From the NCBI GenBank assembly GCA_030689605.1, contig JAUYFT010000026.1:1-50738 (forward strand): a DNA stretch of 50,738 bases. Direction: 5' to 3'. Each line of letters opens with the position of its first letter. Position 1 is the first letter of the stretch. Position numbers and translations under genes: made by a program. This document shows, in pieces, positions 1 to 50,738 of the stretch. The notes under the pieces are model-generated. The model was not told where the DNA came from and did no database searches. It worked only from the letters and a program-made list of their open reading frames with translations. The stretch is from a bacterium (lineage in GTDB: Bacteria; Patescibacteriota; Patescibacteriia; PEXW01).

Positions 1-1462
<1,462 letters not shown>

Positions 1463-13072: not shown

Positions 13073-13237
13073 TCTGATGTTTTATAATTTTCATGAAACG
13101 CGCACGCTAGAGAGCGTGCGCTCGGTTATTGATAACGAGGCCGAGCGCAGGCCTCTGTGCCTCCCCTCCTGCCCGAGGAGGGGTGCCCGCAGGGCGGGGT
13201 GGTGGGAGCCGCGGGCAGAGACGCCCGCGCTTGAATA

Positions 13238-25763: not shown

Positions 25764-25801
25764 TTACGAATTACGAATAGCAACCTACGAAATACGAATG
25801 G
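25764..25801. repeat. Left inverted-repeat arm of the GxxExxY cassette (4 x TACGAAW heptamers)
   Basis: TTACGAATTACGAAT (25764-25778) is the exact reverse complement of 26233-26247. TACGAATGG (25793-25801) is the exact reverse complement of 26202-26210. Confidence 0.85.
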
Positions 25802-26211
25802 ATCAGGAAGGACAAATTCGTAGGAAGGATTTAGTCCATGCAGACCTGAGCTACCGCGTCGTCGGTATTCTCTTTGAGGTATTCAATGAGCTTGGGTATG
25901 GACACCTGGAACGCGTGTACCAGCGAGCGATTGCCGAACTGATGCGAAAGCTTGACCTCCATTTCCAAGAGCAAGTACGCTATACCATACAACTTAAAAA
26001 TCGTCCGATTGCATCATATGTTCTTGATTTTCTCATTGAAGGGAAGGTTGTTCTAGAGTTAAAACGCGGTGCGCGGTATATGCGAAAAGACATCGAACAA
26101 GTGTACGCCTACCTACGAGCCAGTGACTTACAGTTAGGCATCCTCGCTACCTTCACATCGCAAGGAGTGGCATACAAACGCATTGTCAACATCGAGCATC
26201 CCCATTCGTAG
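25798..26211 (+). CDS. GxxExxY protein (PD-(D/E)XK nuclease-like, PDDEXK_3)
   Basis: Literal motif G-HL-E-RV-Y within LGYGHLERVYQ, followed by D...ELK (VLDFLIEGKVVLELK). Confidence 0.8.
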   Translation: MDQEGQIRRKDLVHADLSYRVVGILFEVFNELGYGHLERVYQRAIAELMRKLDLHFQEQVRYTIQLKNRPIASYVLDFLIEGKVVLELKRGARYMRKDIEQVYAYLRASDLQLGILATFTSQGVAYKRIVNIEHPHS

Positions 26212-26249: not shown

Positions 26250-27266
26250 TCACTTTACACAAACCTTAGCAATAAAGTGGACCAGGCCGAGTTCAGGATC
26301 GACCTTGCCGGTCTTCATGTCCACGTCCAACTGCGCCAGGTCTAAAAATAACTGGCGGATAGTGCCGGCGGGAAACTGCCGCACCGCCGCAATTGCCTTC
26401 TGCGCTACGTACGGGTGCAGGTCAGTCTCGGCGGCAATGCTCCCCGGTGCCAGCTTGCGATTCAAGCAATCTTCAACGACCAGCAGCATCCGCAGCTGCC
26501 GCGTGAGCATGGCGTGCAAGACGAGCGGGTGGACGCCCAGTTGGAGCTGACTTTGGAAGAGCCCAAGCGCAGCCGCGGCGTTGCGCGCCGAAAGCGCATC
26601 CGTGAAGTGGAATATATTGTCATCCAGCGGTGCCTTGCTCCACTCTCCGACGAGGACTTGCGTGATGGGCTTCCCGCCTGCCGAAGCAACGATCTGCGCC
26701 ACTACCCCGCTCATTGCCCACAGGTCTGGCCCGACATTCGTGGCAAGCTGCATCACAGCGGAAGGTTCAATGCTACCGCCGAGGCGCTTCACCTCGTTGC
26801 GAATCCAAGCTAGTAGTTGCGCCGCGGCGAGCGGTTCGAACACTTCAACCTTTGCATGCGCTGGCCAGGAAATTTTCGTCGGTGCAATCGCGGGCTTCTT
26901 GGCTTTTGATTTGCTCGGCTTTTTTGGTGCGGTTTTCTTCGGTGCGGCAGGTTTGCCGAGATCTTTGCTTTCCCAGGCAATCATCACGGTGTCTGGGAAT
27001 GCTTCCGCATCCAACCACGCATTAAACTGCTCACGGTCGGCCACCAAAGCCGTGGAGTAGAAGTCGTACAGAACCACGAGCCGCTTCTTGGCAAACATGC
27101 CCACCTGCGCCGCGCTCGCCCGGACTTTCGCTATTTCAAAGGGAGCCACAAATGAGGACACATTCGAGCCAGCAGTGTCGTACTTCTTCTTAAAGCCTTC
27201 GCGCAATACAACCAACCGTTTGCGGGAACTGTACGTATCTGCACCGTGGAGGATGAGGAGGTCCAT
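26250..27266 (-). CDS. holA: DNA polymerase III subunit delta
   Basis: The LILHGADTYS start and the length and helical C-terminal half are typical of HolA. This is the weakest of the replication calls. Confidence 0.7.
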   Translation of the reverse strand: MDLLILHGADTYSSRKRLVVLREGFKKKYDTAGSNVSSFVAPFEIAKVRASAAQVGMFAKKRLVVLYDFYSTALVADREQFNAWLDAEAFPDTVMIAWESKDLGKPAAPKKTAPKKPSKSKAKKPAIAPTKISWPAHAKVEVFEPLAAAQLLAWIRNEVKRLGGSIEPSAVMQLATNVGPDLWAMSGVVAQIVASAGGKPITQVLVGEWSKAPLDDNIFHFTDALSARNAAAALGLFQSQLQLGVHPLVLHAMLTRQLRMLLVVEDCLNRKLAPGSIAAETDLHPYVAQKAIAAVRQFPAGTIRQLFLDLAQLDVDMKTGKVDPELGLVHFIAKVCVK

Positions 27267-27454
27267 GGGGGCAGGATAGCCTTAGAGCTGTAGAGCCGTA
27301 AAGCCATCAGTAGGGGCAAAGCTTGCTTTGTCCAGGCTTCATCCAAACCCCAAGCGCGGGCGTCTCTGCCTGCGCGGGCACTGAAGGTTGACAAAAATTA
27401 CGATTATGAGAGGGTGATAATAATAACATGTACCTTAAAATATCGGAGTAACAA

Positions 27455-28048
27455 ATGCTAGAGAATGGATGGAAAATCGAAGTCTTTTTCAAGGATTATT
27501 CCGCGCCAGCAAGTTTTGAAATCCCGGATGAATACGTCATCGAAGTTAGGGAGCAAAACGAATTCCGTGAGATCAAATTTCGTGATGACGCTGGAAAAAT
27601 CAGACACTTCAGTACACTGACTGGGGAGCGATTACTCAAGATGGAACGAGCTATTGTGGCATTCTATAGTGACAAACAGCTTGAGATTTGCGCGATCACG
27701 ACTGCTGTAACATTACTTAATTGCAGCGACAACACCACCCTCGACACTCTTCGTTGCTACCGACGTCAATGGCTTGAATCATTTACACTAGGGCAATGCC
27801 TTTCCCGTTGGTATGACCGGTGGTCTCCGCCTGTCGCGCAGTGGCTTGCGACTAGTAAGTGGCAAGCACACTTCTTGCTCAAGGTATTTATTCAGCCTTG
27901 CGCCTGGATGGCCGCACAAGCGGAAATGTATCGGCTCTTTGCTTTGCCACTAAGAATAGTTGTTGCGTGCTGGTATGTAGCCGCATCTCTAACCGCAAAG
28001 CTGTTGTATTCCCTACGAAAGGTTGAACTATGTGGATATTACTTTTAG
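27455..28048 (+). CDS. Orphan hypothetical protein (cassette 1)
   Basis: 197-aa ORF, visibly AT-richer than its flanks. It has an SD-like GGAG 7 nt upstream and a hydrophobic, Trp/Cys-rich C-terminal half. No family recognised. Confidence 0.5.
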   Translation: MLENGWKIEVFFKDYSAPASFEIPDEYVIEVREQNEFREIKFRDDAGKIRHFSTLTGERLLKMERAIVAFYSDKQLEICAITTAVTLLNCSDNTTLDTLRCYRRQWLESFTLGQCLSRWYDRWSPPVAQWLATSKWQAHFLLKVFIQPCAWMAAQAEMYRLFALPLRIVVACWYVAASLTAKLLYSLRKVELCGYYF

Positions 28049-28229
28049 GCGAACCCCGCGGTTCGCCTTTTTTAATTGTCATTGCGAGGAGGCCAACAGG
28101 CCGACGCGGCAATCTCCCTACATGAGCAAGATTGCCGCACCCTCGCACGGCTCGGGCTCGCAATGACAATACAAAATGTTGAAGCGTTTACAGACGCGCA
28201 CCTTAGCAGGCAGAGACGCCTGCGCTTGG
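28048..28229 (+). repeat. Cassette 3' module copy 1 (terminator hairpin + nested palindrome + AGAGAC hairpin)
   Basis: Components in order:
- terminator GGCGAACC-CCGC-GGTTCGCC followed by T6
- outer stem TTGTCATTGCGAG (28076-88) / CTCGCAATGACAA (28157-69)
- inner stem GCGGCAATCT (28106-15) / AGATTGCCGC (28129-38)
Positions 28048-28176 match 28921-29049 with 2 substitutions by my alignment. Confidence 0.9.
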
Positions 28230-28403
28230 CCTAGGATAAGTATGCGGATGTCCGAAGGACAGGTGAGGGGGGTAAACAAGCATTGACAATGGGCTTACAT
28301 AGCGCTAGTGTGAAACATTCTTTGACAACCCCTGCCCACGGCAGGAAAACCAACAACCATCCAGACTCGGACGAGTCAAAGCGCGGACGCGCAGGAGGAA
28401 AAT

Positions 28404-28913
28404 ATGTACGGCAAGACTTCGAGAATATTGAAAGAAATGAAGGAGGAGCGACGAAAAGAAACAAAACTAGTTGCACAGAATTACAGGTTAGTAAACAAAG
28501 ATTTGCCATTCTTGTGGGCATGTTCACCATTTTGGAATCTCAGTCACATCGCTATTACAGTCCATGACGTCAAACCAGAAACCAAAACGTTTGATCTTCT
28601 AGCCAAACAACTCATGTTCACAAAAGAGCAATGTGGTACCCACTTTCAAGTGTGGGTATATATTGATTACCACCTAGACATGATACGAATCGCTCCTATT
28701 ACCCTTGAAGTGTCAACGCCCATATGGAAAAGTATAGTATCAATAGCTGATGAAAAAGGAAACCAATGGTATTCCATAACGCACTTCATCTTTGCCTGGG
28801 GCAAACAGGAAAGCGTCTGCCTTAAAAAAATGGAGGTTTACAGGGTTCATGATGACCGAAAAAGTCGTAATACTTTGGGCATTCTCAGAGACCGGTTATC
28901 CAGCCAACCTTAA
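28404..28913 (+). CDS. Orphan hypothetical protein (cassette 2)
   Basis: 169-aa ORF, AT-rich, with a strong SD (CAGGAGGAAAAT-ATG) and a TTGACA hexamer upstream (28283). No family recognised. Confidence 0.5.
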   Translation: MYGKTSRILKEMKEERRKETKLVAQNYRLVNKDLPFLWACSPFWNLSHIAITVHDVKPETKTFDLLAKQLMFTKEQCGTHFQVWVYIDYHLDMIRIAPITLEVSTPIWKSIVSIADEKGNQWYSITHFIFAWGKQESVCLKKMEVYRVHDDRKSRNTLGILRDRLSSQP

Positions 28914-28920
28914 TCGCATT

Positions 28921-29097
28921 GGCGAACCCCGCGGTTCGCCTTTTTTAATTGTCATTGCGGGGAGGCCAACAGGCCGACGCGGCAATCTCCCTGCATGAGC
29001 AAGATTGCCGCACCCTCGCACGGCTCGGGCTCGCAATGACAATACAAAAATGTTGGGGTGTTCCGCACGCGCACCTTAGAGAAGGTGCGCTTGGTCT
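28921..29097 (+). repeat. Cassette 3' module copy 2
   Basis: Same terminator and nested palindrome as 28048-28176, at an offset of 873 nt. It lacks the AGAGAC hairpin but re-converges on GCGCACCTTAG...GCGCTTGG. Confidence 0.9.
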
Positions 29098-29210
29098 ATT
29101 TATACATGCCGAGCGCATGCTCTCCCCGCCTGCCTCCCGCCCGCTGCGACGAGCGCAGCGAGTCGGGCGGGCCGCCTAATGCTTGACATTGGCGGGCGGG
29201 TAGCGTGCGC

Positions 29211-31976
29211 TCACCTAACGGCTTCCATCTCCCCCCAATTCTCCCCTACCTTCACATCGGCGATGAGTGGTGCGGCTAATTCGTACACACCTTCCATGGT
29301 TTGCTTCACGAATGAGGATACTTTGTTCACGTCTGCATTGGGCACTTCAAACACGAGTTCATCATGCACCGTCAATATCATCCGGGACTTTGGGCTAACC
29401 TTTGGTAAGCCTTTGTCGCACGCGATCATGGCGAGCTTGAGGATGTCCGCGGCCGTCCCCTGCACGGGCAGGTTCACGGCAATGCGTTCGGCTTGGCTGC
29501 GGATCTGGCCGTTGGAGGAGTTGATCTCGGGTAGATTACGGCGGCGGCCGAACAATGTTTCCACGTAGCCGCGCTTCCGGGCTTGCTCTTTGGTTTCCTC
29601 CAAGAACTTCGCCACCTTTGGCCGGCTCGCAAAGTAGCGGTCAATGAAGTCCTGCGCTTTTTCGCGGCTAATTTTCTTACGACTTGCAAGGCCATACGCA
29701 CCCATACCGTAGAGCACACCAAAGTTTACCTCTTTGGCCGCGCTGCGCTGGTCTTTCGTCACTTGGTCAATGGGAATGCTGAAGATGTCCGCGGCTGTGG
29801 CTTGGTGGATGTCGGCGCCGTGCTTGAACGCGTCAATCATCTTCTGTTCTTTTGCTAAGCTGGCCACCACACGCAATTCAATTTGCGAGTAGTCCACGGA
29901 GACGAGCTGATACCCTTTCTCGGCAATAAAAGCTTTGCGAATTTCCCGACCCAGCTCCGTGCGGATAGGGATATTCTGCAAGTTTGGATTGTTACTGGAG
30001 AGCCGTCCGGTAGCGGCCACGGTCTGGTTGAAGTCCGTGTGTACCCGGCCGGTCTGCTTCTGCACCAGCTCGGGTAACGTCTCGATGTACGTGGAGAGAA
30101 GCTTGGTGAGCTCGCGATACTCCATAATCGCGTCGATGATTGGGTGCTTGCCTTGCAACTTCTCCAACTCATCCACGGCCGTGGAAATGCCGGTCTTGGT
30201 CTTCTTCAGTCCCTCCCTTGAGAGCTTGAGTGTAGTAAAGAGCACTTCTTTGAGCTGCAGCGGGGATTTAATGTTGAACTCCGATTTTGCGTAGCCATGA
30301 ATCTGCTTTTCGAGTTTCTTGATTGTCGCACTTATAGTTTTACTTAGCGCAGCTAGAAACTTCGAATCAATTTTTACCCCTGCGAGCTCAATTTTCTCCA
30401 ACACGGAAATAAGTGGCATTTCAATGTCATCAAACAGCTTCTGCAATTTCAGCGATTGGAGCTGCGGACTGAACTGCTTCACCAAGCGGTAGGTGTAGTC
30501 CGCATCTTCCCCCGAGTACTCGGCAATTTTCTCCACGGCCACCTCTTCCATTGTTACTTGATCCTTGCCCTTCTTGCCAATCAGGTCTTCAATGGGAATC
30601 ATTTGATGGCCGAACTCATTGAACGCCAGTGCATTCAAACTATGCGCCCGTGAACCAGAGTTCAAGAGGTAGCTGGCAATCATGCTGTCGAACGCCAAGG
30701 GTTGCACGTCAATCCCAGACAATGTCAGCACTTCGGCGTCGTACTTGCAGTTGTGACCCCACTTACCGACCTTAGGATTCTCGAGAATTCCTTTCAGCTC
30801 CTTAAGCCAGGCAGCATGACCCTTGGTGACAACGTAGTACGCCTCCCCAGCTTTCCAGGAGAAGCTAATTCCCAGTAGCTTCGCGTCGTACGGATTCAAG
30901 CTGGTCGTCTCGGTGTCGAAGACGAAGGCCTTTTGCTTCTGAAGTTCATCGAAAAAAGTTTTAAAGGCTCTCTCGTCATTCACCAACGTGTACGTATGCT
31001 TCGAAACTTTTTCACCGAAGAGCGACTGCCGGATTACACCCACCTCTCCCTCTTTCGAAGAGGGAGATTCGAGAGGGAGTGCATTCTGGGATAACAGCGG
31101 TATCTTCGCTACCAAACTCTTAAAACCCCACTTCACGAACAATTCGTGCAGCTTTGCCGCGTCGGCACTGTGCACCTTGGCTGCGTCGATGTTAAACGGC
31201 AACGGCACGTCGAGCTTTATTGTCGCCAATTTTTTGCTCATGTATGCGTTATCCTTCTCCTGCATGAGCTTCTCTAGCAACTTCGCCGAGATATTCTTGG
31301 CTTTTTGGGGTGTGTGCTCCAGCACGCGGTACATCTCCTCAATGGTGTGGAACTGCTGGATGAGGTCGGTCGCGGTTTTCTCCCCCACGCCTTTCACGCC
31401 CGGGATGTTGTCCGACGGGTCGCCGCGCAGCGCTTTGTAGTCAATGATGTCCTCGGGACCAAACCCATAGCGCGCCTCCACATCTTTCGGTGTGTACAGC
31501 ACCGTATCGTTCAAACCTTTGCGCAAACTGTAGACCGACACCTGCTTCGAAACGAGCTGCATGGTATCCATATCGCCAGTGAGGATGACCACATGTGCCT
31601 TATCTTTTGCTAAGCGATGGGAGAGTGTACCAATAACATCATCAGCCTCCACGCCGTCAGCCTCCACAACCGGGAAGCCAAACGCCGCCACCAAATCGTG
31701 CGCCAGGGGAATTTGATCGTAGAGCTCTTGCGCGGCCTTCACGCGCGTGGCTTTGTACTGGTCGTAGATGTCGTCGCGGAACGTCGGGCCTTTCATGTCA
31801 AAGGCGACCGCGACGTGCGTGGGCTTGATGTCCTTGAGCGCCTTGAGCAACGCTGTGGCAAAACCGTACACGGCATTCACCATGGTGCCATCTTTGGCCG
31901 TCAGCGGCGGCAGGGCGTGGAAGCTGCGGTGGATAATGGCGTTCCCGTCTACAAGCAGAACTTTGGGGGCAGGCAT
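29211..31976 (-). CDS. polA: DNA polymerase I (5'-nuclease, 3'-5' exonuclease and polymerase domains)
   Basis: VLLVDGNAIIHRSFHA, FVFDTETTSL, motif A VSVDYSQIELRV, motif B RSAAKEVNFGVLYGM, motif C LTVHDELVFE. ATG 31976 is preferred over the TTG at 31997. Confidence 0.95.
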   Translation of the reverse strand: MPAPKVLLVDGNAIIHRSFHALPPLTAKDGTMVNAVYGFATALLKALKDIKPTHVAVAFDMKGPTFRDDIYDQYKATRVKAAQELYDQIPLAHDLVAAFGFPVVEADGVEADDVIGTLSHRLAKDKAHVVILTGDMDTMQLVSKQVSVYSLRKGLNDTVLYTPKDVEARYGFGPEDIIDYKALRGDPSDNIPGVKGVGEKTATDLIQQFHTIEEMYRVLEHTPQKAKNISAKLLEKLMQEKDNAYMSKKLATIKLDVPLPFNIDAAKVHSADAAKLHELFVKWGFKSLVAKIPLLSQNALPLESPSSKEGEVGVIRQSLFGEKVSKHTYTLVNDERAFKTFFDELQKQKAFVFDTETTSLNPYDAKLLGISFSWKAGEAYYVVTKGHAAWLKELKGILENPKVGKWGHNCKYDAEVLTLSGIDVQPLAFDSMIASYLLNSGSRAHSLNALAFNEFGHQMIPIEDLIGKKGKDQVTMEEVAVEKIAEYSGEDADYTYRLVKQFSPQLQSLKLQKLFDDIEMPLISVLEKIELAGVKIDSKFLAALSKTISATIKKLEKQIHGYAKSEFNIKSPLQLKEVLFTTLKLSREGLKKTKTGISTAVDELEKLQGKHPIIDAIMEYRELTKLLSTYIETLPELVQKQTGRVHTDFNQTVAATGRLSSNNPNLQNIPIRTELGREIRKAFIAEKGYQLVSVDYSQIELRVVASLAKEQKMIDAFKHGADIHQATAADIFSIPIDQVTKDQRSAAKEVNFGVLYGMGAYGLASRKKISREKAQDFIDRYFASRPKVAKFLEETKEQARKRGYVETLFGRRRNLPEINSSNGQIRSQAERIAVNLPVQGTAADILKLAMIACDKGLPKVSPKSRMILTVHDELVFEVPNADVNKVSSFVKQTMEGVYELAAPLIADVKVGENWGEMEAVR

Positions 31977-31982
31977 AGGTAC

Positions 31983-32011
31983 AGAGTAGCGCCTCAATTA
32001 TCTTCTGTCAT
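31983..32011 (-). promoter_or_regulatory. polA promoter (ATGACA-N17-TACTCT), 6 nt from the ATG
   Basis: Minus strand reads AGAATGACAGAAGATAATTGAGGCGCTACTCTGTACCTATG. Confidence 0.55.
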
Positions 32012-32050: not shown

Positions 32051-32157
32051 GAGATATATTATTGTCATCCCGGGGTAATCCGAGGGATCTCGCATTTCCT
32101 GAATATTATAAATACGAGATTTCTCCCCCTCGGTGAGCTCGGGGTCGAAATGACAAA
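32051..32157. repeat. ~105-nt imperfect palindromic (REP/MITE-like) element
   Basis: The ends are ATTGTCAT...ATGACAA. Internal arms GAGGGATCTCG and CGAGATTTCTCCCCCTC pair imperfectly. The terminal TTGTCAT/ATGACAA is the same as in the cassette modules at 28076 and 28949. Confidence 0.6.
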
Positions 32158-32168
32158 AAAATTTATAC

Positions 32169-32465
32169 TCATTCAATCTCCTCTGCCAAATCAAGCCATT
32201 TTGGATTAAGCTCGGTAATCAATTTTGTCTTCTTTGACCGTCGCCACTTCTTCAATTCTTTCTCTCGATCAATCGCAGCGCCAATGTCATTAGTTTCTTC
32301 ATAGTAGACAAGCTTGGTGCACTTATACTTCTTGGTAAAACCCTTTGCTAAACCGTGCTTGTGTTCGTAAACACGATGCACCAAGCTATTAGTCACACCA
32401 ATGTAAATCACGCCGGTTGTGCTGGCCATGATATACACAAAGTAACGATGCTTTTGCATTCTCAT
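32169..32465 (-). CDS. GIY-YIG nuclease-family protein (UPF0213-like)
   Basis: YFVYIMASTTGVIYIGVTNSLVHRVYEHKHG...YYEE...AIDREKELKKW. The ATG lies 2 nt after the metzincin stop. Confidence 0.8.
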   Translation of the reverse strand: MRMQKHRYFVYIMASTTGVIYIGVTNSLVHRVYEHKHGLAKGFTKKYKCTKLVYYEETNDIGAAIDREKELKKWRRSKKTKLITELNPKWLDLAEEIE

Positions 32466-32467
32466 TG

Positions 32468-33223
32468 CTACTTTACTTTCTGGAATGCAGCAATCTGCGC
32501 GAGCTCTTCCGGGCAGTACTGCGTCGGGACAATCTGCGGCGCCCACGACGTTGAGACTGGTTGCTCAACCACGGCGGCCATAATGCAGGAAGGTTCATCC
32601 AAGTGGTCCAAGCCAACTTGGTGGCCGAACTCGTGCAGGATGGTGGACGTCACCAGTGCGGCCTGGGCGTTCGACTCTGGTGTTAGCTCTTGGATACTTG
32701 CCATGAATACAACAATGCCATGCTCGCGGACCGAACTGCCAACCTGAGTTGGAGAAACTGCATCTTTGGTAAGCACAAAAATGTCCACCGGGGTCTGGAT
32801 GGAATCCATTTTGGATGCTTGCCCCGCGAGTCTTCGGAAGTCCTTACTCGTGTAGGTTTCTTTCGTTGATGTGAGTTGGAGCGGCGTTCCGATATCAAAC
32901 CCGCCACTGCCGAGGAGTTTCACCATTTCTGGTAGCGCCGCCTCGATGCTCCCGTTGGGAATTACCACTGCAGGATCGAGAAATATTCGCACCGGAAAAC
33001 CCTCGGAGCGTGCTGGGTGGAGGTAATCACTGCGGCCGTCTCCTGCTTGGTGCAAACCCAAGGCCCACCGAATAAGCGGACGCTCTGCTGCTCGCGCCCG
33101 CCAGTGTGTGTTGAACCAGGTATCCTGCTGCCCGTTATTCGCCTGGTAGCGCAAGAACGAGAAGCTGAATGCAAAAAAAATGACAACTAGGAGAACGACA
33201 GTAATAGAACGTTGGTGCTGCAT
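32468..33223 (-). CDS. Membrane-anchored zinc metalloprotease (metzincin-type HExxHxxGxxH)
   Basis: HEFGHQVGLDH motif and N-terminal TM helix ITVVLLVVIFFAFSFSF. Confidence 0.75.
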   Translation of the reverse strand: MQHQRSITVVLLVVIFFAFSFSFLRYQANNGQQDTWFNTHWRARAAERPLIRWALGLHQAGDGRSDYLHPARSEGFPVRIFLDPAVVIPNGSIEAALPEMVKLLGSGGFDIGTPLQLTSTKETYTSKDFRRLAGQASKMDSIQTPVDIFVLTKDAVSPTQVGSSVREHGIVVFMASIQELTPESNAQAALVTSTILHEFGHQVGLDHLDEPSCIMAAVVEQPVSTSWAPQIVPTQYCPEELAQIAAFQKVK

Positions 33224-44123: not shown

Positions 44124-44492
44124 ATGAAAAATTTTACCCAACGCATCATTTCACTCGGTGCCCTCGCTAGCCTCCTGCTTCCTGCCGTCACGCACGCGGC
44201 CGTTACCATTGAGAACATCGGGGGTAGCCTGGGTCTTGGCAACGCCGACCTGAAGACCACGGTGATGAACATCATCACCTTCGTCCTCGGCCTCCTCGGC
44301 CTTATTGCCGTGGTGATGATGCTGTACGGCGGCTTCACCTGGATGACCGCGGGTGGCAACGAGGATAAAGTCGACACGGCGAAGAAAATTATTTCTTCGG
44401 CTGCGGTCGGGCTGGTCATCATTCTCATATCCTGGGCCATCGTCACCTTCGTCGTCGGTTCTACGCGGAACGTCACGGGTTCGGGTTTGTAA
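44124..44492 (+). CDS. T4SS-pilin-like (TrbC/VirB2-like) small membrane protein, copy 1
   Basis: Signal peptide followed by two hydrophobic helices around LYGGFTWMTAGGNEDKVDTAKK. This pattern matches the CPR pilin family as I recall it. Confidence 0.68.
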   Translation: MKNFTQRIISLGALASLLLPAVTHAAVTIENIGGSLGLGNADLKTTVMNIITFVLGLLGLIAVVMMLYGGFTWMTAGGNEDKVDTAKKIISSAAVGLVIILISWAIVTFVVGSTRNVTGSGL

Positions 44493-44618
44493 GCCTATGT
44501 GGATCATTCTGTAGCAACCAATGAGGAAATTTTTGGTTTGACGGACAGGAAGAACCTGGTAGAGTAAAAGCGTGTTCACTTCGAAATGAAACTCCATGAA
44601 CAGAAGGGGGGTGGATGT

Positions 44619-44978
44619 ATGAAACTCAATCGCAAACTCATCGCTGGTGCAGCGTCAATCGCGACGCTCGTTATCCCGGCAATCGCCTCTGCTGCGGTTA
44701 CAATCGAGAACGTCGGTGGCTCCCTAGGCCTCGGCTCGGCTGACCTCAAGCAGACCGTCCTTAACATTATCACCTTCGTGCTCGGTCTCCTCGGCCTCAT
44801 CGCCGTCATCATGATCCTGTACGGTGGCTTTATCTGGCTCACCGCGGGTGGCAACGAAGACAAAGTCGACCAAGCCAAGAAGATCATCTCGGCTGCGGCC
44901 GTCGGTCTCGTCGTCATTCTGGTCTCCTGGGCCATCGTCAACTTCGTCATTGGTTCCACTCGGAACGTAACGACCTAG
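44619..44978 (+). CDS. T4SS-pilin-like small membrane protein, copy 2 (tandem paralog)
   Basis: Roughly three quarters or more identical to copy 1 by eye over the mature part. ATG 44619 is preceded by AAGGGGGG. Confidence 0.68.
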   Translation: MKLNRKLIAGAASIATLVIPAIASAAVTIENVGGSLGLGSADLKQTVLNIITFVLGLLGLIAVIMILYGGFIWLTAGGNEDKVDQAKKIISAAAVGLVVILVSWAIVNFVIGSTRNVTT

Positions 44979-45289: not shown

Positions 45290-45544
45290 TTATATATTTT
45301 GTAAAGTGAACTTCAACATTGCCCGTAACGTATATTTCCCCTTGCTGGATTTTAAATACCTTTCTCTTTTTTCGGCGTCTAACTTATTGTTAAAGGCCTC
45401 GTAAAAAATCAGCTTCACCGGCAATCTATTTTTCGTAAATGGACTCTTCCCTTTCTTGTGTTCAGCAAGCCTCCTTTTCAAGTCCAAGGTCATGCCACAG
45501 TAAAGCTGTTTGTTTGATAATTGTAAGATGTAAATATAATGCAT
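45290..45544 (-). CDS. GIY-YIG nuclease-family protein
   Basis: MHYIYILQLSNKQLYCGMTLDLKRRLAEHKKGK...EKRERYLK, strongly AT-rich. ATG 45544 is preferred because the ORF-track GTG start lies in tRNA-derived sequence. Confidence 0.75.
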   Translation of the reverse strand: MHYIYILQLSNKQLYCGMTLDLKRRLAEHKKGKSPFTKNRLPVKLIFYEAFNNKLDAEKRERYLKSSKGKYTLRAMLKFTLQNI

Positions 45545-45549
45545 ATTTT

Positions 45550-45631
45550 GCGCGTATACCACCCAGCACCACTAAAGGGTGCTGGGTAGCCATGAACCTT
45601 TAGTGGTTCATGGCAATTTCACCACCTGGGC
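45550..45631 (-). pseudogene. tRNA-Leu 5' fragment (about positions 1-30) interrupted by a 52-nt double hairpin
   Basis: 45614-45631 is identical to 45266-45283 (tRNA positions 1-18). 45550-45561 (GCGCGTATACCA) matches 45255-45267 apart from a 2-nt indel. The insert spans 45562-45613. Confidence 0.75.
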
Positions 45632-45690: not shown

Positions 45691-46727
45691 CCCTCTCGCT
45701 AGTTACGGAGGTTTCTTCTCTGACCCCGCACCCTGCATGTGTAACTCTATCCTTAATTCCGAAGGCCAAGGCGGCTAACACACGTCCCTATTTTTGGAAC
45801 CGGTGTCGTCCCGCCCCAAGCCGCGGGATTTTTGTTTCCCAGCAGAGGCCGTCCTGAGCGTAAGTCGAAGGATCCCTCTGGCGAGAAGCCCACAGCAGCT
45901 CGAACGTTACCAACTGCATAGTGCACGAACATGAATGTATAAGAAAGGTAACGAATAAGCATAAGTAAGTTAGTCTCGGAAATTTCCACACGGTAAGCTG
46001 CAGCCGCAGCGAAGCGTGTCGGACCGTTTCTGGAGACGGGTGACGACCGGTCCGCGCTCAACGTTGATGCGCGCGTGCCATGGTCGCCGCACAAGGGCGT
46101 ACGGTGGATGCCTTGGTACAATATGGCGATGAAGGACGTCGCAGCCTGCGAAAAGCTCCGGGGAGGTGGCAAGCAACCTTTGATCCGGAGATATCCGAAT
46201 GGGGAAACCCTCTACACGGAATGGTGTAGAACGCTATCCTGAATACATAGGGGTAGTGAGCGAACCTGGGGAATTGAAACATCTTAGTACCCAGAGGAAG
46301 AGAAAAAAATGCTGCAGTTATTTGAACAGTGCATCAGCAATGGTGCGCGGTTCATATTCCTGTGGTTATTCCCTGAGTAGTGGCGAGCGAAACGGGAACA
46401 GCTAAAATTTTCGTAGTGTACCCAGCCGCAAGGTTGGGAGAGACGCGTAAGCGGCTGCTACGGAGACGTTGCGAGATGATGTTATCAGAGCTTACGACTC
46501 TGAGGTAGGGACCACGCGGAGTGGTTCTCGGTGTGCCTGCGCAAGCGGGTACAGTGAGAATTATTTCGTTGCGCGTAGTCGAACCGCCTGGAACGGCGGG
46601 CCAAAGACGGTGATAGCCCGGTAGGCGAAACGCGCGAAGCTCTACGACATTTTTCTCGAGTACCGTGGGACACGTGAAATCCTATGGGAACCCGGGACGA
46701 CTACCGTCCCAAAGCTAAATACATATT

Positions 46728-46775
<48 letters not shown>

Positions 46776-48197
46776 GGAAGGGGGATGAAATAGTCTCTGA
46801 AACCGTATGCTTACAAACAGTCGTAGCCCCGCCTCGGCGGGGTCACGGCGTGCCTATTGAAGAATGAACCAACGAGTTTGTTCAGCGGAGTGGGCTAAGG
46901 CCGAGAAGGCCGGAGCCATAGTGAAAGCGAGCGTGTCAAAAGCGCGTACTATAGTTTGAAATGTATTCCGCCGCAAGGCGGACTGCATCTCTTTCTATAA
47001 ACATTCCGTTGACAAGACCCGAAGCCGGGTGATCTACCCATGACCAGGTTGAATCCCGCCGAAAGGCGGGAGGAGGACCGAACCCGTGAGCTGTGCAAAA
47101 CTCTGGGATGAGTTGTGGGTAGCGGAGAAATTCCAATCGAACTCGGCGATAGCTGGTTCTCCTCGAAATAGCTTTAGGGCTAGCGTGGCGTGTTTCCCTG
47201 CGGGGGTAGAGCGACTGAATGGACGTTGATGGCGAAAGCCTACAACGACCAACCAAACTCCGAATACCGCAGGATCTAACGCTGCAGTCAGTCCGTGAGG
47301 TCCAAGCTTCACTGGACGAGAGGGGAAGAACCCATGACCTCCATCTAAGGTCCCGAAGTGGCCGCTCAGTGGTAAAGGTGGTGGGGCGATTGAGACAACG
47401 AGGAGGTTGGCTTAGAAGCAGCCATCCTTTAAAGAAAGCGTAATAGCTCACTCGTCAAATTGCCCTGCGCCGAAAATGTATCGGGGCTCAAGCGGCCCAC
47501 CGAAGTTGAGGATGCCTCGTCGCAAGACGGGGCGTGGTAGAGGAGCGTTCCCAGCAGCGACGAAGCGAGCGTGGAAACTCTCGTGGAGCGCTGGGAAGTG
47601 CGAATGTTGGTATAAGTAACAGAAATGCGGGTGAGAACCCCGCACACCGAAAGTCTAAGGTTTCCTGGGCAACGAAAATCGTCCCAGGGTGAGTCGGTCC
47701 TAAGTCGAGGCCGAAAGGCGTAGATGATGGAGAGCAGGTTAATATTCCTGCACCACGTGATGATTATCCTGACGAGGACACATTTGTGAATTACGCACGG
47801 GATTCGGTTATGCCCGTCCCGCAAGGGGCAGTGGAAGCCGCAAGGTAACCGCAACGCGTATGCAGCAGGTGTCGAGAAAAGTCGTCAGGTTACGTCGTAC
47901 CGTGTCCGTACCGGAAACCGACACAGGTGGACTAGTGTCAACGCACTAAGGTGAACGAGAGAACCCTGGTTTAGGAACTCGGCAAAAAAGCGGCCGTACC
48001 TTCGGTATATGGCCTGCCCCGCCTCTGGCGGGGCTGCAACTAATGATATCAAGTGACTGTTTACCAAAAACACAGGTCCCTGCAAAGCCGAAAGGCAACG
48101 TATAGGGGCTGATGCCTGGCCAGTGTCAGAACGTTAAGGGGAGAGGTGCAAGCCTTGATCCGAAGCGCTGACGAACGCCGGCGATAACTATAATCGT

Positions 48198-48961
48198 TAA
48201 CGACGCTACCGCCACTCATGAAATGGGTGGCAAAAAAGTCAGGGCGATTGTAAAATTCGACTATATGCTGGAATAGCTGTCCCCTCACAGGGGTGAAGTA
48301 TCGTGTGCTACCGAGTAGGTAACAATGCACACGTGCAGCCAATCAGCAGGAAAGACTCCCTAGAATATGCCAAATACCGTGAAAGCAATCCTGACTTCCT
48401 TTCGGGGAAAACGGGAGTTGCTCCACTACTATATTGCGGGACTCGTGGATGGTGAAGGCAGTTTCAGTGTGGCGGTTATCCGCCATCCTTCTCAAACATT
48501 TGGCTGGATGATTAATCCATGCTTCCAAGTGTACCAACACGAAGCACACCGTGAAATTCTTGAACTTTGCCAGTGGGTATTTAAAACCGGCAGCATCTAC
48601 CGCAAGTCTGGGACTAACCATGTTCTGAACTTCAGTATTGATGCTCGCCGCAATCTCTTGGAGAAGGTTATCCCCTTCTTCGACCGGTACCCGCTCATCG
48701 TAAAGCGCGATGCCTATAAATCGTTCCGCACGATTACGAAAGCCATGGAACAAGGCGAGCATCAAACCCGCGAGGGTTTCTGCCGCTTGGTAACGCTGGC
48801 TTTCACGATGAACCAGCAAGGCAAAGGGCGAAAGCATACCCTCGAGTACATCCTCGAGTCGGTAAAAAGTGCTCATGGAGAATCCTCAGAGACTTTACGT
48901 CGAACCCCGCAGGGGCGGGGATGATAAAGTCCACGACCGTAGCGATACGGGTTAGAAAAAG
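48198..48961 (+). mobile_element. Group-I-like intron in 23S at E. coli position ~1923/1924 (H69 3' strand)
   Basis: Exon 1 ends AACTATAATCGT and exon 2 starts CCTAAGGTAGCGAAATTCC. Joining them restores H69 (GGCGA/TCGTC). Exon 1 ends in U and the insert ends in G. AGG-GCGATT (48241-49) can pair with exon 2 CCT (P10) and exon 1 AATCGT (P1, with a U.G pair). Confidence 0.72.
48367..48924 (+). CDS. LAGLIDADG homing endonuclease (single-motif type)
   Basis: YIAGLVDGEGSF motif. It is 185 aa and lies wholly inside the 23S insertion. Confidence 0.88.
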   Translation: MPNTVKAILTSFRGKRELLHYYIAGLVDGEGSFSVAVIRHPSQTFGWMINPCFQVYQHEAHREILELCQWVFKTGSIYRKSGTNHVLNFSIDARRNLLEKVIPFFDRYPLIVKRDAYKSFRTITKAMEQGEHQTREGFCRLVTLAFTMNQQGKGRKHTLEYILESVKSAHGESSETLRRTPQGRG

Positions 48962-49017
<56 letters not shown>

Positions 49018-49528
49018 AACTTGATAACTGTCTCAACCAGGGACTCGGTGAAATTACAAGACGAGTAAAGATGCTCGTTACCCGCAATTAGACGAAAAGA
49101 CCCCATGAAGCTTTACTGTAGTTTGGCATTGTTGACGGGTGTGTGCTGCTGAGAATACGTGGGAGACTTTGAAGTTCTACCTCTGGGTAGGATGGAGTCA
49201 CCAGTGAAATACCACGCTGTGCTCGCACGTCATCTAACGGCATCCCGTTATCCGGGATCCGGACAGTGCCTGATGGGCAGTTTAACTGGGGCGGTTGCCT
49301 CCTAAACGGTAACGGAGGCGTTTACAAAGGTTGGCTACGCACGAATGGAAACCGTGCGCGTCGGGCAAACCCACAAGCCAGCTTGACTGCAAGACCTACA
49401 AGTCGCGCAGCACCGAAAGGTGAAGTTAGTGATCCGACGATCCATTGTAGGATGGTCGAAGCTCAACGGATAAAAGTTACTCTGGGGATAACAGGCTGAT
49501 CGGGTCCAAGAGTCCACATCGACGACCC

Positions 49529-49587
<59 letters not shown>

Positions 49588-49615
49588 TGGCTGTTCGCCA
49601 ATTAAAGCGGTACGT

Positions 49616-49652
<37 letters not shown>

Positions 49653-50084
49653 CTATCTATTGCGGGCGCAGATATTTGCGAAGACTCTTCCCTAGTACGA
49701 GAGGACCGGGAAGGACGAACCTCTGGTGGATGGGTTGTTGTACCAACAGCATTGCCCAGTAGCTACGTTCGGTACGGATAAACGCTGAAAGCATATAAGC
49801 GTGAAGCCGCCTTCTAGATTAGATATCGTTATGAGCTCCCCGGGAGACTACCGGGTTGATAGGCTCTACGTGTAAGACCCGTAAGGGTTTGAGCGGAGGA
49901 GTACTAATCGAGCCAGCGGCAACCATGGGACGCGCTTTCGCAGACCCGGCGAGCAATCGCTGGGCTATCGGAGAGCGTGCACCACAGTCACCCGTTTCCA
50001 AAAGCGGTTCGTAACCTGTACCATTTCCGGTGCAGGGTAAACCTTTCACTTATACATATGTCATTGAAATTTCCCGCCCTCTTT

Positions 50085-50575
50085 AGAAATCTGAAGGGAA
50101 GGCGGGATCCCGCCTCTCGGCGGGATAAACGACGACCGGGCACCGAACTGGTGCTCGCCCTCGTCCTCACTGCCGCGGCCATTGGGCTGGTGCTCTTGCT
50201 GAGCCCCGCCTCCATAGCCGGCGCGCGCTAGAAGCGTTGTAGAACCCTGGTGATTTCCCGCCATCCTTTACAAAATGTACAGGTGGCCCCGCCTTGGCGG
50301 GGCTCCACGGCGGGACAAACGACTGGGTCACACCCGATCCCCCGCCTGCCTCGCCATAGCGAGTTCCTGCCCGCCGTAGTACGGCGTACGCAGGCGGGCG
50401 GCGGGCAGGCATTCCTTGCCCCGCACCTTACAATCATTATTGCAGTCTAGAGTTTCCGGTGCCCCAAACGACTAGGTCACACCCGATCCCATTCCGAACT
50501 CGGAAGTTTCCGCCAGAGGCGGACCCGCCTTTGGCGGGAAGCCGATGAATACCAGCACAATTCTCTAAAAAAGCA
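50085..50575 (+). repeat. Three degenerate 5S-rRNA-like units (A ~50085-50250, B ~50296-50466, C ~50455-50575)
   Basis: The AAACGAC anchor occurs at 50127, 50317 and 50466, with AAGCGAC at 50614 in the true 5S. 50475-50508 is identical to 50623-50656 (34 nt). Unit B keeps GGGTCACACCCGATCCC and a 3' AGAGTTTCCGGTGCCCC but has a foreign GC-rich hairpin core. Confidence 0.65.
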
Positions 50576-50602
50576 TAATGACAATTCATTCGATTCAATG
50601 TT

Positions 50603-50710
50603 CTGGGTGTCTCAAGCGACGGGGTCACACCCGATCCCATTCCGAACTCGGAAGTTAAGCCCGTCCGCGCTGATGGTACTCCTTTCGGGGGAGAGTAGGC
50701 CGGTGCCCAG
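50603..50710 (+). rRNA. rrf: 5S rRNA
   Basis: The sequence CTGGGTGTCTCAAGCGACGGGGTCACACCCGATCCCATTCCGAACTCGGAAGTTAAGCCCGTCCGCGCTGATGGTACTCC...GAGAGTAGGCCGGTGCCCAG aligns with bacterial 5S. Helix I closes with G.U pairs. It is flanked by a perfect 14-bp inverted repeat. Confidence 0.88.
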
Positions 50711-50738
50711 TACATTGAATCGAATATAGCGCTGATGG

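Follow-up and report, generated by a model that had tools for sequence, protein, structure and literature searches.

A probable gene-turnover hotspot built of mosaic palindromic units between holA and polA in a patescibacterial genome

Introduction

Two kinds of described system come closest to the locus that we report here, the spacer between holA (DNA polymerase III delta) and polA in an uncultured member of the Patescibacteria, where two small open reading frames (ORFs), ORF1 and ORF2, are each followed by the same hairpin with a T-run (T) and the same nested palindrome (PAL). The first is the minimal mobile element, a site at which two conserved genes flank different whole-gene cassettes, whose exchange is due solely to recombination between homologous flanks (Saunders and Snyder, 2002, as presented in a later review, PMC3898611). 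The second is a class of repetitive extragenic palindromic (REP) sequences tagged with CGTC or TGTC, which Di Nocera, De Gregorio and Rocco (2013, PMC3733652) describe as mostly inverted dimers that occur in five phyla and show no association with a transposase. According to the same paper, the CGTC repeats include dRS3 of Neisseria, which is equated with CGTC-1, and RPE-4 and RPE-6 of Rickettsia.

The stretch that we analysed, hereafter the window, is contig JAUYFT010000026.1 (50,738 nt) of a metagenome-assembled genome (MAG; assembly GCA_030689605.1), with locus tags Q8O51_02700 and Q8O51_02705. A first reading of the window made without database searches, which we call the sequence-only reading, had proposed that the two ORFs and their shared 3′ module are cassettes at an exchange or capture locus, and had named an integron attC-like site, a gene captured by a MITE (miniature inverted-repeat transposable element) and orphan immunity or toxin genes as candidates. 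Our comparison with related genomes and with the wider palindrome family favours a different account, to which we give a probability of about 0.62: the holA-polA spacer would be a gene-turnover hotspot that resembles a minimal mobile element and is built of mosaic palindromic units.

Results

Part of the evidence for this account is the content of the spacer in eight related genomes from the Patescibacteria clade, whose holA is 64-87% identical to that of the window (58-87% for holA homologues overall). Where both flanking genes can be followed, in the window, L001 and L252-L256, zero to three unrelated genes lie between them. The spacer holds no gene in L254 (holA 80% identical; 119 nt) or in L255 (85%; 207 nt), the latter with a diverged T and a CCCTCC-type palindrome. 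L252 (87%) has a 252-aa phosphoribosyltransferase-like (PRTase-like) ORF with T, then iPGM; L256 (73%) has a 176-aa gene on the opposite strand; and L253 (84%) has an intact hairpin of the inverted-repeat (IR) type, a remnant of an ORF2-type leader with T, a 62-aa ORF (ORF63) with T, a 163-aa gene on the opposite strand and a partial T. L001 (84%) has ORF1 with T, followed by the 59-aa ORF59, a further hairpin (T′) and a palindrome of another subtype. Two loci cover the holA side only: L257 (64%), with ORFs of 189 and 88 aa, does not reach polA, and L131 (64%), with an ORF2-like gene, ends with its contig. The genes are not paired consistently, ORF1 standing with ORF59 in L001 and the ORF2-like genes standing alone. 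The earlier judgement that this is no ordinary operon agrees with these data, as the spacer is a site of gene turnover across the eight relatives. The presence/absence comparison that the sequence-only reading had called for gave a divided answer, in that the content of the interval varies, as turnover would have it, but ORF1 keeps a fixed place in three species, which speaks against a cassette array.

On L257 (positions 1-1143, reverse strand), leaders that resemble each other (CATTCA...TTTGGTCAACC...GGCGCAAAGAAGG) stand before the two successive, unrelated ORFs beside holA (189 aa and at least 88 aa), and the shared module there lies at the 5′ end of the genes.

Both spacer ORFs of the window lie on the plus strand between minus-strand neighbours, as had been described (coordinates, Pfam assignments and composition all agree; Table 1), and their G+C content (0.46 for ORF1, 0.41 for ORF2) is below that of the whole window (0.55). 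At third codon positions (GC3), the four extra, inserted genes of the window have values of 0.42-0.49, against 0.61-0.75 for core genes, an atypical composition. No similarity was found between the two ORFs, and the idea that they are paralogues was rejected. ORF1 has orthologues of 83% and 77% identity, which lie beside holA and divergent from it where DNA is available. Its dN/dS is 0.23-0.30 and variation is highest at the third codon position, so that the coding signal whose absence would have counted against the first reading is present for ORF1, a real lineage-specific gene under purifying selection. The 80 nt upstream of ORF1 are nearly invariant across the three species, and this block probably functions as a promoter. 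TTGACA hexamers occur at 27388, 28284 and 28323, together with Shine-Dalgarno sequences. The claim that each ORF has such signals of its own is upheld to that extent, but canonical -35/-10 pairs were no more frequent than chance in a promoter scan (2 found, 2.5 expected).

ORF1 and both orthologues match NCBIfam NF041770 (CFI-box-CTERM; E ~1e-9) with 35-37 bits, below its curated cut-off of 40, the similar and thus sub-threshold segment being residues 79-139 of ORF1; a literature search for "CFI-box" returned no paper mentioning the domain. Neither ORF has a Pfam, PADLOC or PHROGs match, searches of PDB sequences with profiles gave nothing meaningful, and structure models were too poor to use, with a pLDDT of 41 for ORF1 (three-sequence alignment) and 47 for ORF2 (single sequence).

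ORF2 has no close relative among 5.8 billion proteins, where it matched only itself. An exhaustive HMMER search recovered two remote homologues, P0006 and P0007 (E ~2e-4; protein identity 26-28%), which share with ORF2 the motif QN.R..NKDFPFLWA.S.FW; a third candidate, P0005 (933 aa), was discarded as a low-complexity repeat protein. P0006 is the gene of L131, where it is divergent from the adjoining holA (64% identical to that of the window) and where ...GGCGAACC comes after its stop codon as the contig ends. On these similarities, ORF2 is a member of a rare, sparsely sampled family without an assigned function. P0007 lies in another setting (L130, 6001-11392): it has the same leader, a cupredoxin gene adjoins it and a Phage_CRI replication-initiator gene lies about 4 kb away. 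Such a setting may mean that mobile DNA can carry the family.

Upstream of ORF2, some 85 nt show conservation with L131 (1541-1645) and in part with L130 (6106-6156). In the three-way junction formed by the 3′ part of this leader, UCC and the Shine-Dalgarno GGA are paired, and the tetraloops of two short hairpins contain GGA. All 12 of the 12 junction pairs are kept in the window, L131 and L130, three of them with compensatory changes, which in three sequences is suggestive only of a maintained pairing that would sequester the Shine-Dalgarno sequence; CsrA-type or other translational control through the leader is speculation. A covariance model found no further copy in 239 kb comprising the window and selected related loci, none was found in IMG/VR, and the leader has no match in Rfam.

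T is a 20-nt hairpin with a stem of 8-9 pairs (6 of them G-C) and a run of six T residues (T6); by sequence it has the form of a Rho-independent terminator, and we predict that it acts as one. Its distance from the stop codon is 0 nt for ORF1 and 7 nt for ORF2, inside the 0-8 nt that the sequence-only reading had given. No copy beyond these two exists in the window, and the 162 kb of clade DNA hold no copy, full or partial, outside the holA-polA spacer, where the copies stand behind at least five unrelated ORFs; homology among them comprises the hairpin, the T-run and, in some, a preceding gcaaa. L001 and L009 carry T after ORF1 as an orthologous copy. Unrelated ORFs do share T at their 3′ ends; PAL is not tied to cassettes. 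The T stem is common among terminators of at least 120 unrelated metagenome contigs. A metagenome scan with GGCGAACCNNNNGGTTCGCCTTT yielded, among the matches listed (at least 120), generic and mostly bidirectional terminators, none with a homologue of the genes at this locus, and is for that reason uninformative on it; a full-text literature search for the stem sequence returned unrelated primer sequences only.

T and PAL are separable units, which together make up the shared 3′ module. ORF1 and T occur in L001 and L009 with no PAL behind them, and the flanks of PAL in the window, TTTTTTAA and TAC, give the L001 sequence TTTTTTAATAC when joined. What follows T varies: another PAL subtype (TTGTCATCCTGA...TCAGAATGACAA) takes the position of PAL copy 2 in L001, a CCCTCC-type element stands behind T in L009, L253 and L255, and nothing follows certain other copies.

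Folding reproduced the description of PAL as a nested palindrome with an outer and an inner stem, for both strands and for RNA and DNA alike (z = -5.8 to -6.8 against shuffles). The window copies read tTGTCATT...AATGACAa, with ends TTGTCATTGCGAG ... CTCGCAATGACAA. We searched one-genome-per-species GTDB contigs and IMG/VR with the pattern GTCATTGCGRG-N45-75-CTCGCAATGAC. The outer stem is present in at least 120 GTDB genome stretches, where by our own estimate about 2 would be expected by chance, from Alpha-, Gamma- and Deltaproteobacteria, Bacteroidota, Chloroflexi, Planctomycetota, Cyanobacteria and Patescibacteria. The palindrome GTCATTGCGAG...CTCGCAATGAC is found in at least 120 IMG/VR viral contigs, with up to three copies per 8-12 kb, and viral contigs are a possible route for its spread across phyla. 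As we read the translations, the viral copies lie near phage structural, capsid-like and other recurring ORFs.

Members of the family, the window copies included, share a layout of outer stem, variable side hairpin and inner stem, the last reading CGAAGCAATC.../...GATTGCTTCG or a GYGGCAATC variant. Their arms vary semi-independently, and about a quarter of the elements mix arm types with non-wobble mismatches (A.A, T.T, A.C). Each half pairs with itself over ATTGC/GCAAT only (5 bp), around 10-18 nt, and stems of 11-13 bp join the halves. At position -1 the family has C in 65% and T in 30% of cases, at +1 it has G in 67% and A in 29%, and the CGTC/TGTC tag results from these flanking bases; the commonest tail is GCAATCCAG (40 of 103 elements, or 48 with CCAT and CCAA counted), where the window copies read GCAATCTCC. 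Only 13% of the elements, against 59% of random positions, fall deep inside long ORFs, and the family is mostly intergenic. Target duplications are missing among 266 elements (flanking direct repeats of 2-4 nt are no more frequent than chance predicts, and those of 5 nt occur in only 2 elements), and no protein or transposase family recurs beside PAL among the genome and viral loci listed (at least 120 of each). Rfam gave no match at its gathering threshold in 27250-29250, the hits being at chance level (E >= 0.88).

Taken together, PAL is, as far as sequence and distribution can tell, a non-autonomous REP- or MITE-like interspersed element that is widespread across bacterial phyla and viral contigs. 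It does not fit the proposal of a cassette-specific, attC-like site: it is interspersed, mostly intergenic and has no recurrent partner gene, and scatter through intergenic DNA with no association to variable ORFs is the very pattern that the sequence-only reading had named as telling against itself.

GIY-YIG genes, which have been associated with such palindromes, were considered as a mobilising partner and rejected for the PAL-A subtype: they are absent from 120 genome loci and occur within 1 kb in 1 of 120 viral loci. One GIY-YIG gene of the window does stand next to a TGTC-tagged palindrome (32062-32546, between polA and a peptidase gene), and has a low GC3; a second GIY-YIG-like ORF lies at 45293-45571 on the minus strand.

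The two copies of the module form a direct repeat (28048-28176 and 28921-29049) of 98% identity at an offset of 873 nt, and our alignment agrees with the two substitutions in 129 positions that had been counted, one in the outer stem (28087A/28960G) and one in the inner loop (28120A/28993G). The repeat goes on further than had been claimed: a weaker similarity with indels extends to about 28229/29094, some 55 nt past PAL, because the exact 13-mer ACGCGCACCTTAG (28194 and 29067) and TGCGCTTGG (28221 and 29086) recur in both tails. Upstream the copies are unrelated, with 15 matches in the adjoining 40 nt. The near-identity of the two T-PAL copies would follow from a recent local segmental duplication, from gene conversion or from a repeat-mediated (Campbell-type) insertion, with no dedicated cassette site.

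Another way to two near-identical modules is independent transposition, with PAL as an active MITE-like element that prefers the A/T-rich stretch after terminator hairpins and landed there twice. We regard this as unlikely, if the best placed of the alternatives. An element of that kind would explain why the empty site in L001 and L009 falls exactly at the PAL boundary, why the place behind T is taken by a different palindrome in L009, L253 and L255 and by another PAL subtype in L001, and why the family is interspersed and reaches viral contigs. However, two separate landings are harder to reconcile with similarity that continues past PAL, the 13-mer keeping its offset, and transposition itself with a family that has neither target duplications nor an associated transposase and is represented by few copies in this clade. 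The lack of both hallmarks also tells against the MITE-captured gene that had been among the original candidates.

Somewhat less likely again is that T and PAL act as a structured 3′ untranslated region (UTR) or small RNA of the ORF1 and ORF2 transcripts, a role in which selection on plus-strand RNA would explain the change in the outer stem, which gives G.U on that strand. The fold is very stable (z = -6.5), and REP-type hairpins stabilise upstream mRNA, according to background cited in PMC3733652; but the minus strand folds equally well, Rfam holds no matching family, and the G.U pair is a single substitution in a family whose arm mismatches are non-wobble, so that the earlier statement that the change is tolerated only in plus-strand RNA is not supported. 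Because PAL directly follows the T-run, transcripts terminated at T would exclude it, and it would be transcribed only by read-through. Its place behind a strong terminator and its absence beside the ORF1 orthologues make the 3′-UTR role unlikely.

ORF1 and its module also stand between inverted arms, which the sequence-only reading had given as 25-mers matching at 23/25 and which we place at 27350-27373 and 28206-28229, complementary at 23/24. The two arms adjoin each other in L253 and L254, where they fold as one compact hairpin, which abuts polA in L254; because of this single hairpin in two relatives, we read the ORF1 cassette as lying inside a split palindrome. The window, L253 and L254 align from the start of holA through the left arm and diverge exactly at the hairpin centre, past which the window and L001 continue into the ORF1 upstream block and L253 and L254 into the right arm. 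The ORF2-type leader comes next after the right arm in the window as it does in L253. An insert of about 830 nt (ORF1, T, PAL and tail) would have entered the centre of a pre-existing palindromic hairpin. The 21-nt arm motif occurs at two further places in the window, 13141 and 13214 (4 matches in all, 0.02 expected). That intergenic region (13100-13235) has a hairpin, GCGCACGCT-agag-AGCGTGCGC, and then an IR-type inverted pair, a two-module layout that is repeated downstream of polA at 29069-29213.

Table 1. Features of the holA-polA spacer and its surroundings in the window
Feature	Position	Strand	Description
holA (DNA polymerase III delta)	26250-27266	-	PF21694, E = 9e-28; conserved left flank
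Left arm of split palindrome	27350-27373	.	IR-type element CCAAGCGCGGGCGTCTCTGCC...
ORF1 upstream block	27388-27454	+	TTGACA, TGATAAT-like box, GGAG Shine-Dalgarno
ORF1	27455-28048	+	197 aa
T copy 1	28048-28073	+	GGCGAACC-CCGC-GGTTCGCC and T6; terminator scan
PAL copy 1	28076-28169	.	94-nt TGTC-tagged nested palindrome, CGTC/TGTC-REP-dimer class; fold z = -6.3
Tail of duplicated segment	28170-28205	.	diverged copy of 29043-29079, alignment with indels
Right arm of split palindrome	28206-28229	.	complementary to left arm at 23/24
ORF2-family 5′ leader	28318-28403	+	TTCTTTGACAA, hairpin 28331-28345, A/C-rich stretch, three-way junction 28360-28396
ORF2	28404-28913	+	169 aa
T copy 2	28921-28946	+	same hairpin and T6; terminator scan
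PAL copy 2	28949-29042	.	2 substitutions relative to copy 1
Small GC hairpin	29069-29090	.	GCGCACCTT-agag-AAGGTGCGC; polA side; conserved in L001
IR-type long hairpin	29119-29213	.	right arm overlaps polA stop; conserved in L001; L254 counterpart is the compact IR hairpin abutting polA
polA	29211-31997	-	Pfam DNA_pol_A, E = 4e-157, and exonuclease domains; conserved right flank
Third TGTC-tagged palindrome	32062-32156	.	other subtype; just downstream of GIY-YIG gene 32169-32546 (-); both absent from L001

Elsewhere in the window, a PD-(D/E)XK (PDDEXK_3) gene of low GC3 lies between S20 and holA (25798-26211) and is absent from L001. The 23S rRNA gene (46081-49927) is about 920 nt longer than the Rfam model and contains an ORF for a LAGLIDADG endonuclease (48367-48921), and this suggests an intron that carries a homing endonuclease. 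At 50309, 50458 and 50606 (within 50309-50711) lie three 51-nt segments that look like the 5′ portion of 5S rRNA, at a spacing of 148-149 nt, only the last of them within a full 5S gene (50603-50711). Another direct repeat, of 300 nt and 74% identical (44164-44463 and 44659-44958), has overlapping ORFs on both strands; the adjacent minus-strand ORFs over it (44151-44597 and 44576-44959) may be paralogues.

Discussion

The two apparent cassettes are, as far as the sequences can tell, two unrelated small genes with upstream regions of their own, presumably expressed separately, in a spacer whose content differs among related genomes. The pattern is real and has more structure than a chance repeat would show. 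We propose that genes would enter and leave the spacer by homologous recombination that uses the conserved flanks together with short palindromic repeats or hairpin-induced breaks, with no dedicated recombinase; as the sequence-only reading had stated, none is encoded in the window (Pfam scan of 27 ORFs), nor is there one among the called genes of 12 related loci. A further role of the palindromes may be to shield transcription units, convergent as well as tandem, from one another.

Several observations weigh against this proposal or lie outside its reach. The source genome is represented by the 50.7-kb contig alone, and tagged palindromes number 3 in it, against 1 in the 20 kb of L001 and 0 across six further loci; because PAL is low-copy in the clade DNA sampled, it is at most a putative abundant REP of this genome. 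Homologous recombination as the route of exchange would be an analogy with Neisseria, and more than one order of events may have led to the present state, as independent insertion of PAL beside two identical T hairpins would also give near-identical modules. An identical 8-bp T stem persists across genomes whose holA is only 64% identical, and the ORF2-family leader is better conserved than its protein (about 27% identity); the conservation of both suggests a sequence-specific role of the gene flanks that our model leaves unexplained. Nor does the model fully explain why T is confined to the spacer.

These oddities (a locus-specific T, flanks of the ORF2 family that outlast its coding sequence and a structured leader) leave a small probability of a new capture mechanism. 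The spacer would in that case be a dedicated gene-capture site, recombinase-independent or served by an enzyme yet to be recognised, with T and the ORF2-type leader as joints and TGTC palindromes co-opted, on an attC-like principle without an integron. We consider this improbable.

An integron-like or other site-specific cassette array, with T, PAL or both as attC-like sites and a recombinase encoded outside the window, is more improbable still. At least five unrelated ORFs, arranged head to tail at a single locus in several genomes, do have the same T behind them, and the ORF2-family flanks do outconserve the gene between them. But no integrase or recombinase was found in the window or the 12 related loci, the ends of PAL read YGTCAT...ATGACR and not the RYYYAAC...GTTRRRY of R and L boxes, and T is merely 20 nt and a T-run, with a stem shared by terminators in at least 120 unrelated metagenome contigs. 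The spread of PAL over many phyla, mostly between genes and with no association to cassettes, its absence from orthologous ORF1 loci, the conserved upstream regions that the ORFs have of their own and the presence of spacer genes on the other strand also count against the integron-attC candidate of the sequence-only reading.

That the ORFs are toxin-antitoxin, immunity or defence cassettes, orphan effector or immunity genes shuffled at a defence islet, is hardly credible: small AT-rich, lineage-restricted ORFs at a variable site, with PD-(D/E)XK and GIY-YIG nuclease genes inserted in the same window, would suit such an islet, but neither ORF matches PADLOC, PHROGs or Pfam (which tells against the toxin or immunity candidate raised at first), the sole signal in ORF1 is the CFI-box-CTERM-like segment, the ORFs are not consistently paired and the structure models are too poor to use.

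The turnover hotspot that we favour extends a described class of CGTC/TGTC-tagged REP dimers to reduced Patescibacteria genomes, to further phyla and to viral contigs, and offers an example of palindromes marking the turnover of orphan genes between two essential replication genes. For annotators, PAL explains recurrent spurious ORFs with translations such as ...SLRGGQQADAAIS...LAMT. The locus also provides three leads for future work: a terminator hairpin confined to one locus, a gene cassette in the centre of a palindrome, and a leader before a rare protein family that may sequester the Shine-Dalgarno sequence.

Set beside the systems known, PAL agrees with the CGTC/TGTC REPs, as Di Nocera, De Gregorio and Rocco (2013) and the Rickettsia conorii dimers in their supplement present them, in the YGTC tag at both outer ends with a stem that starts with AT, in inverted dimers with outward tags that can form one long stem-loop, and in an interspersed, mostly extragenic distribution over several phyla with no transposase. 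It differs from what is described there in that each half pairs with itself over about 5 bp only, around a long internal segment, in place of an 8-9-bp stem with a 4-5-nt loop, most of the pairing being from half to half, and in its hosts, as Patescibacteria, Chloroflexi, Planctomycetota, Cyanobacteria and viral contigs are outside the list given in that paper. At the inner tail the comparison is mixed: the family consensus has ...AATCCAG, and the window copies read GCAATCTCC and lack the CCA of the known tail consensus.

Minimal mobile elements and the intergenic mosaic elements of Neisseria, in the account given by the sources cited above, share with this spacer conserved flanks, varying whole-gene cassettes and arrays of short palindromic repeats (dRS3 in Neisseria). 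Our comparison, however, is between species and genera of uncultured Patescibacteria and not between strains, natural transformation and recombination being assumed by analogy, and a locus-specific terminator hairpin is repeated behind the cassettes here. Integron cassettes likewise place unrelated ORFs head to tail with an imperfect palindrome after each, but have IntI, R and L boxes and a palindrome specific to the cassette, all missing here, where the ORFs have upstream signals of their own and the palindrome is absent at orthologous ORF1 loci. MITEs and REP doublets forming hairpins (REPINs) are, like PAL, short, non-coding and interspersed, with inverted arms, a long hairpin and presence or absence at orthologous sites, whereas PAL has no target-site duplication, no GTAG tag and no RAYT or other transposase nearby in the window or the loci compared. 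The bacterial interspersed mosaic elements (BIMEs) of enterobacteria, and REPs that serve as targets of insertion sequences (ISs) (Tobes and Pareja, 2006, as cited in PMC3733652), are alike in their mosaic of palindromic units and in DNA inserted inside a palindrome, but the insert here is a small gene with a terminator and a second palindrome and not an IS. The parts of the holA-polA spacer thus belong to known kinds, and current understanding of such elements is not overturned by their arrangement here.

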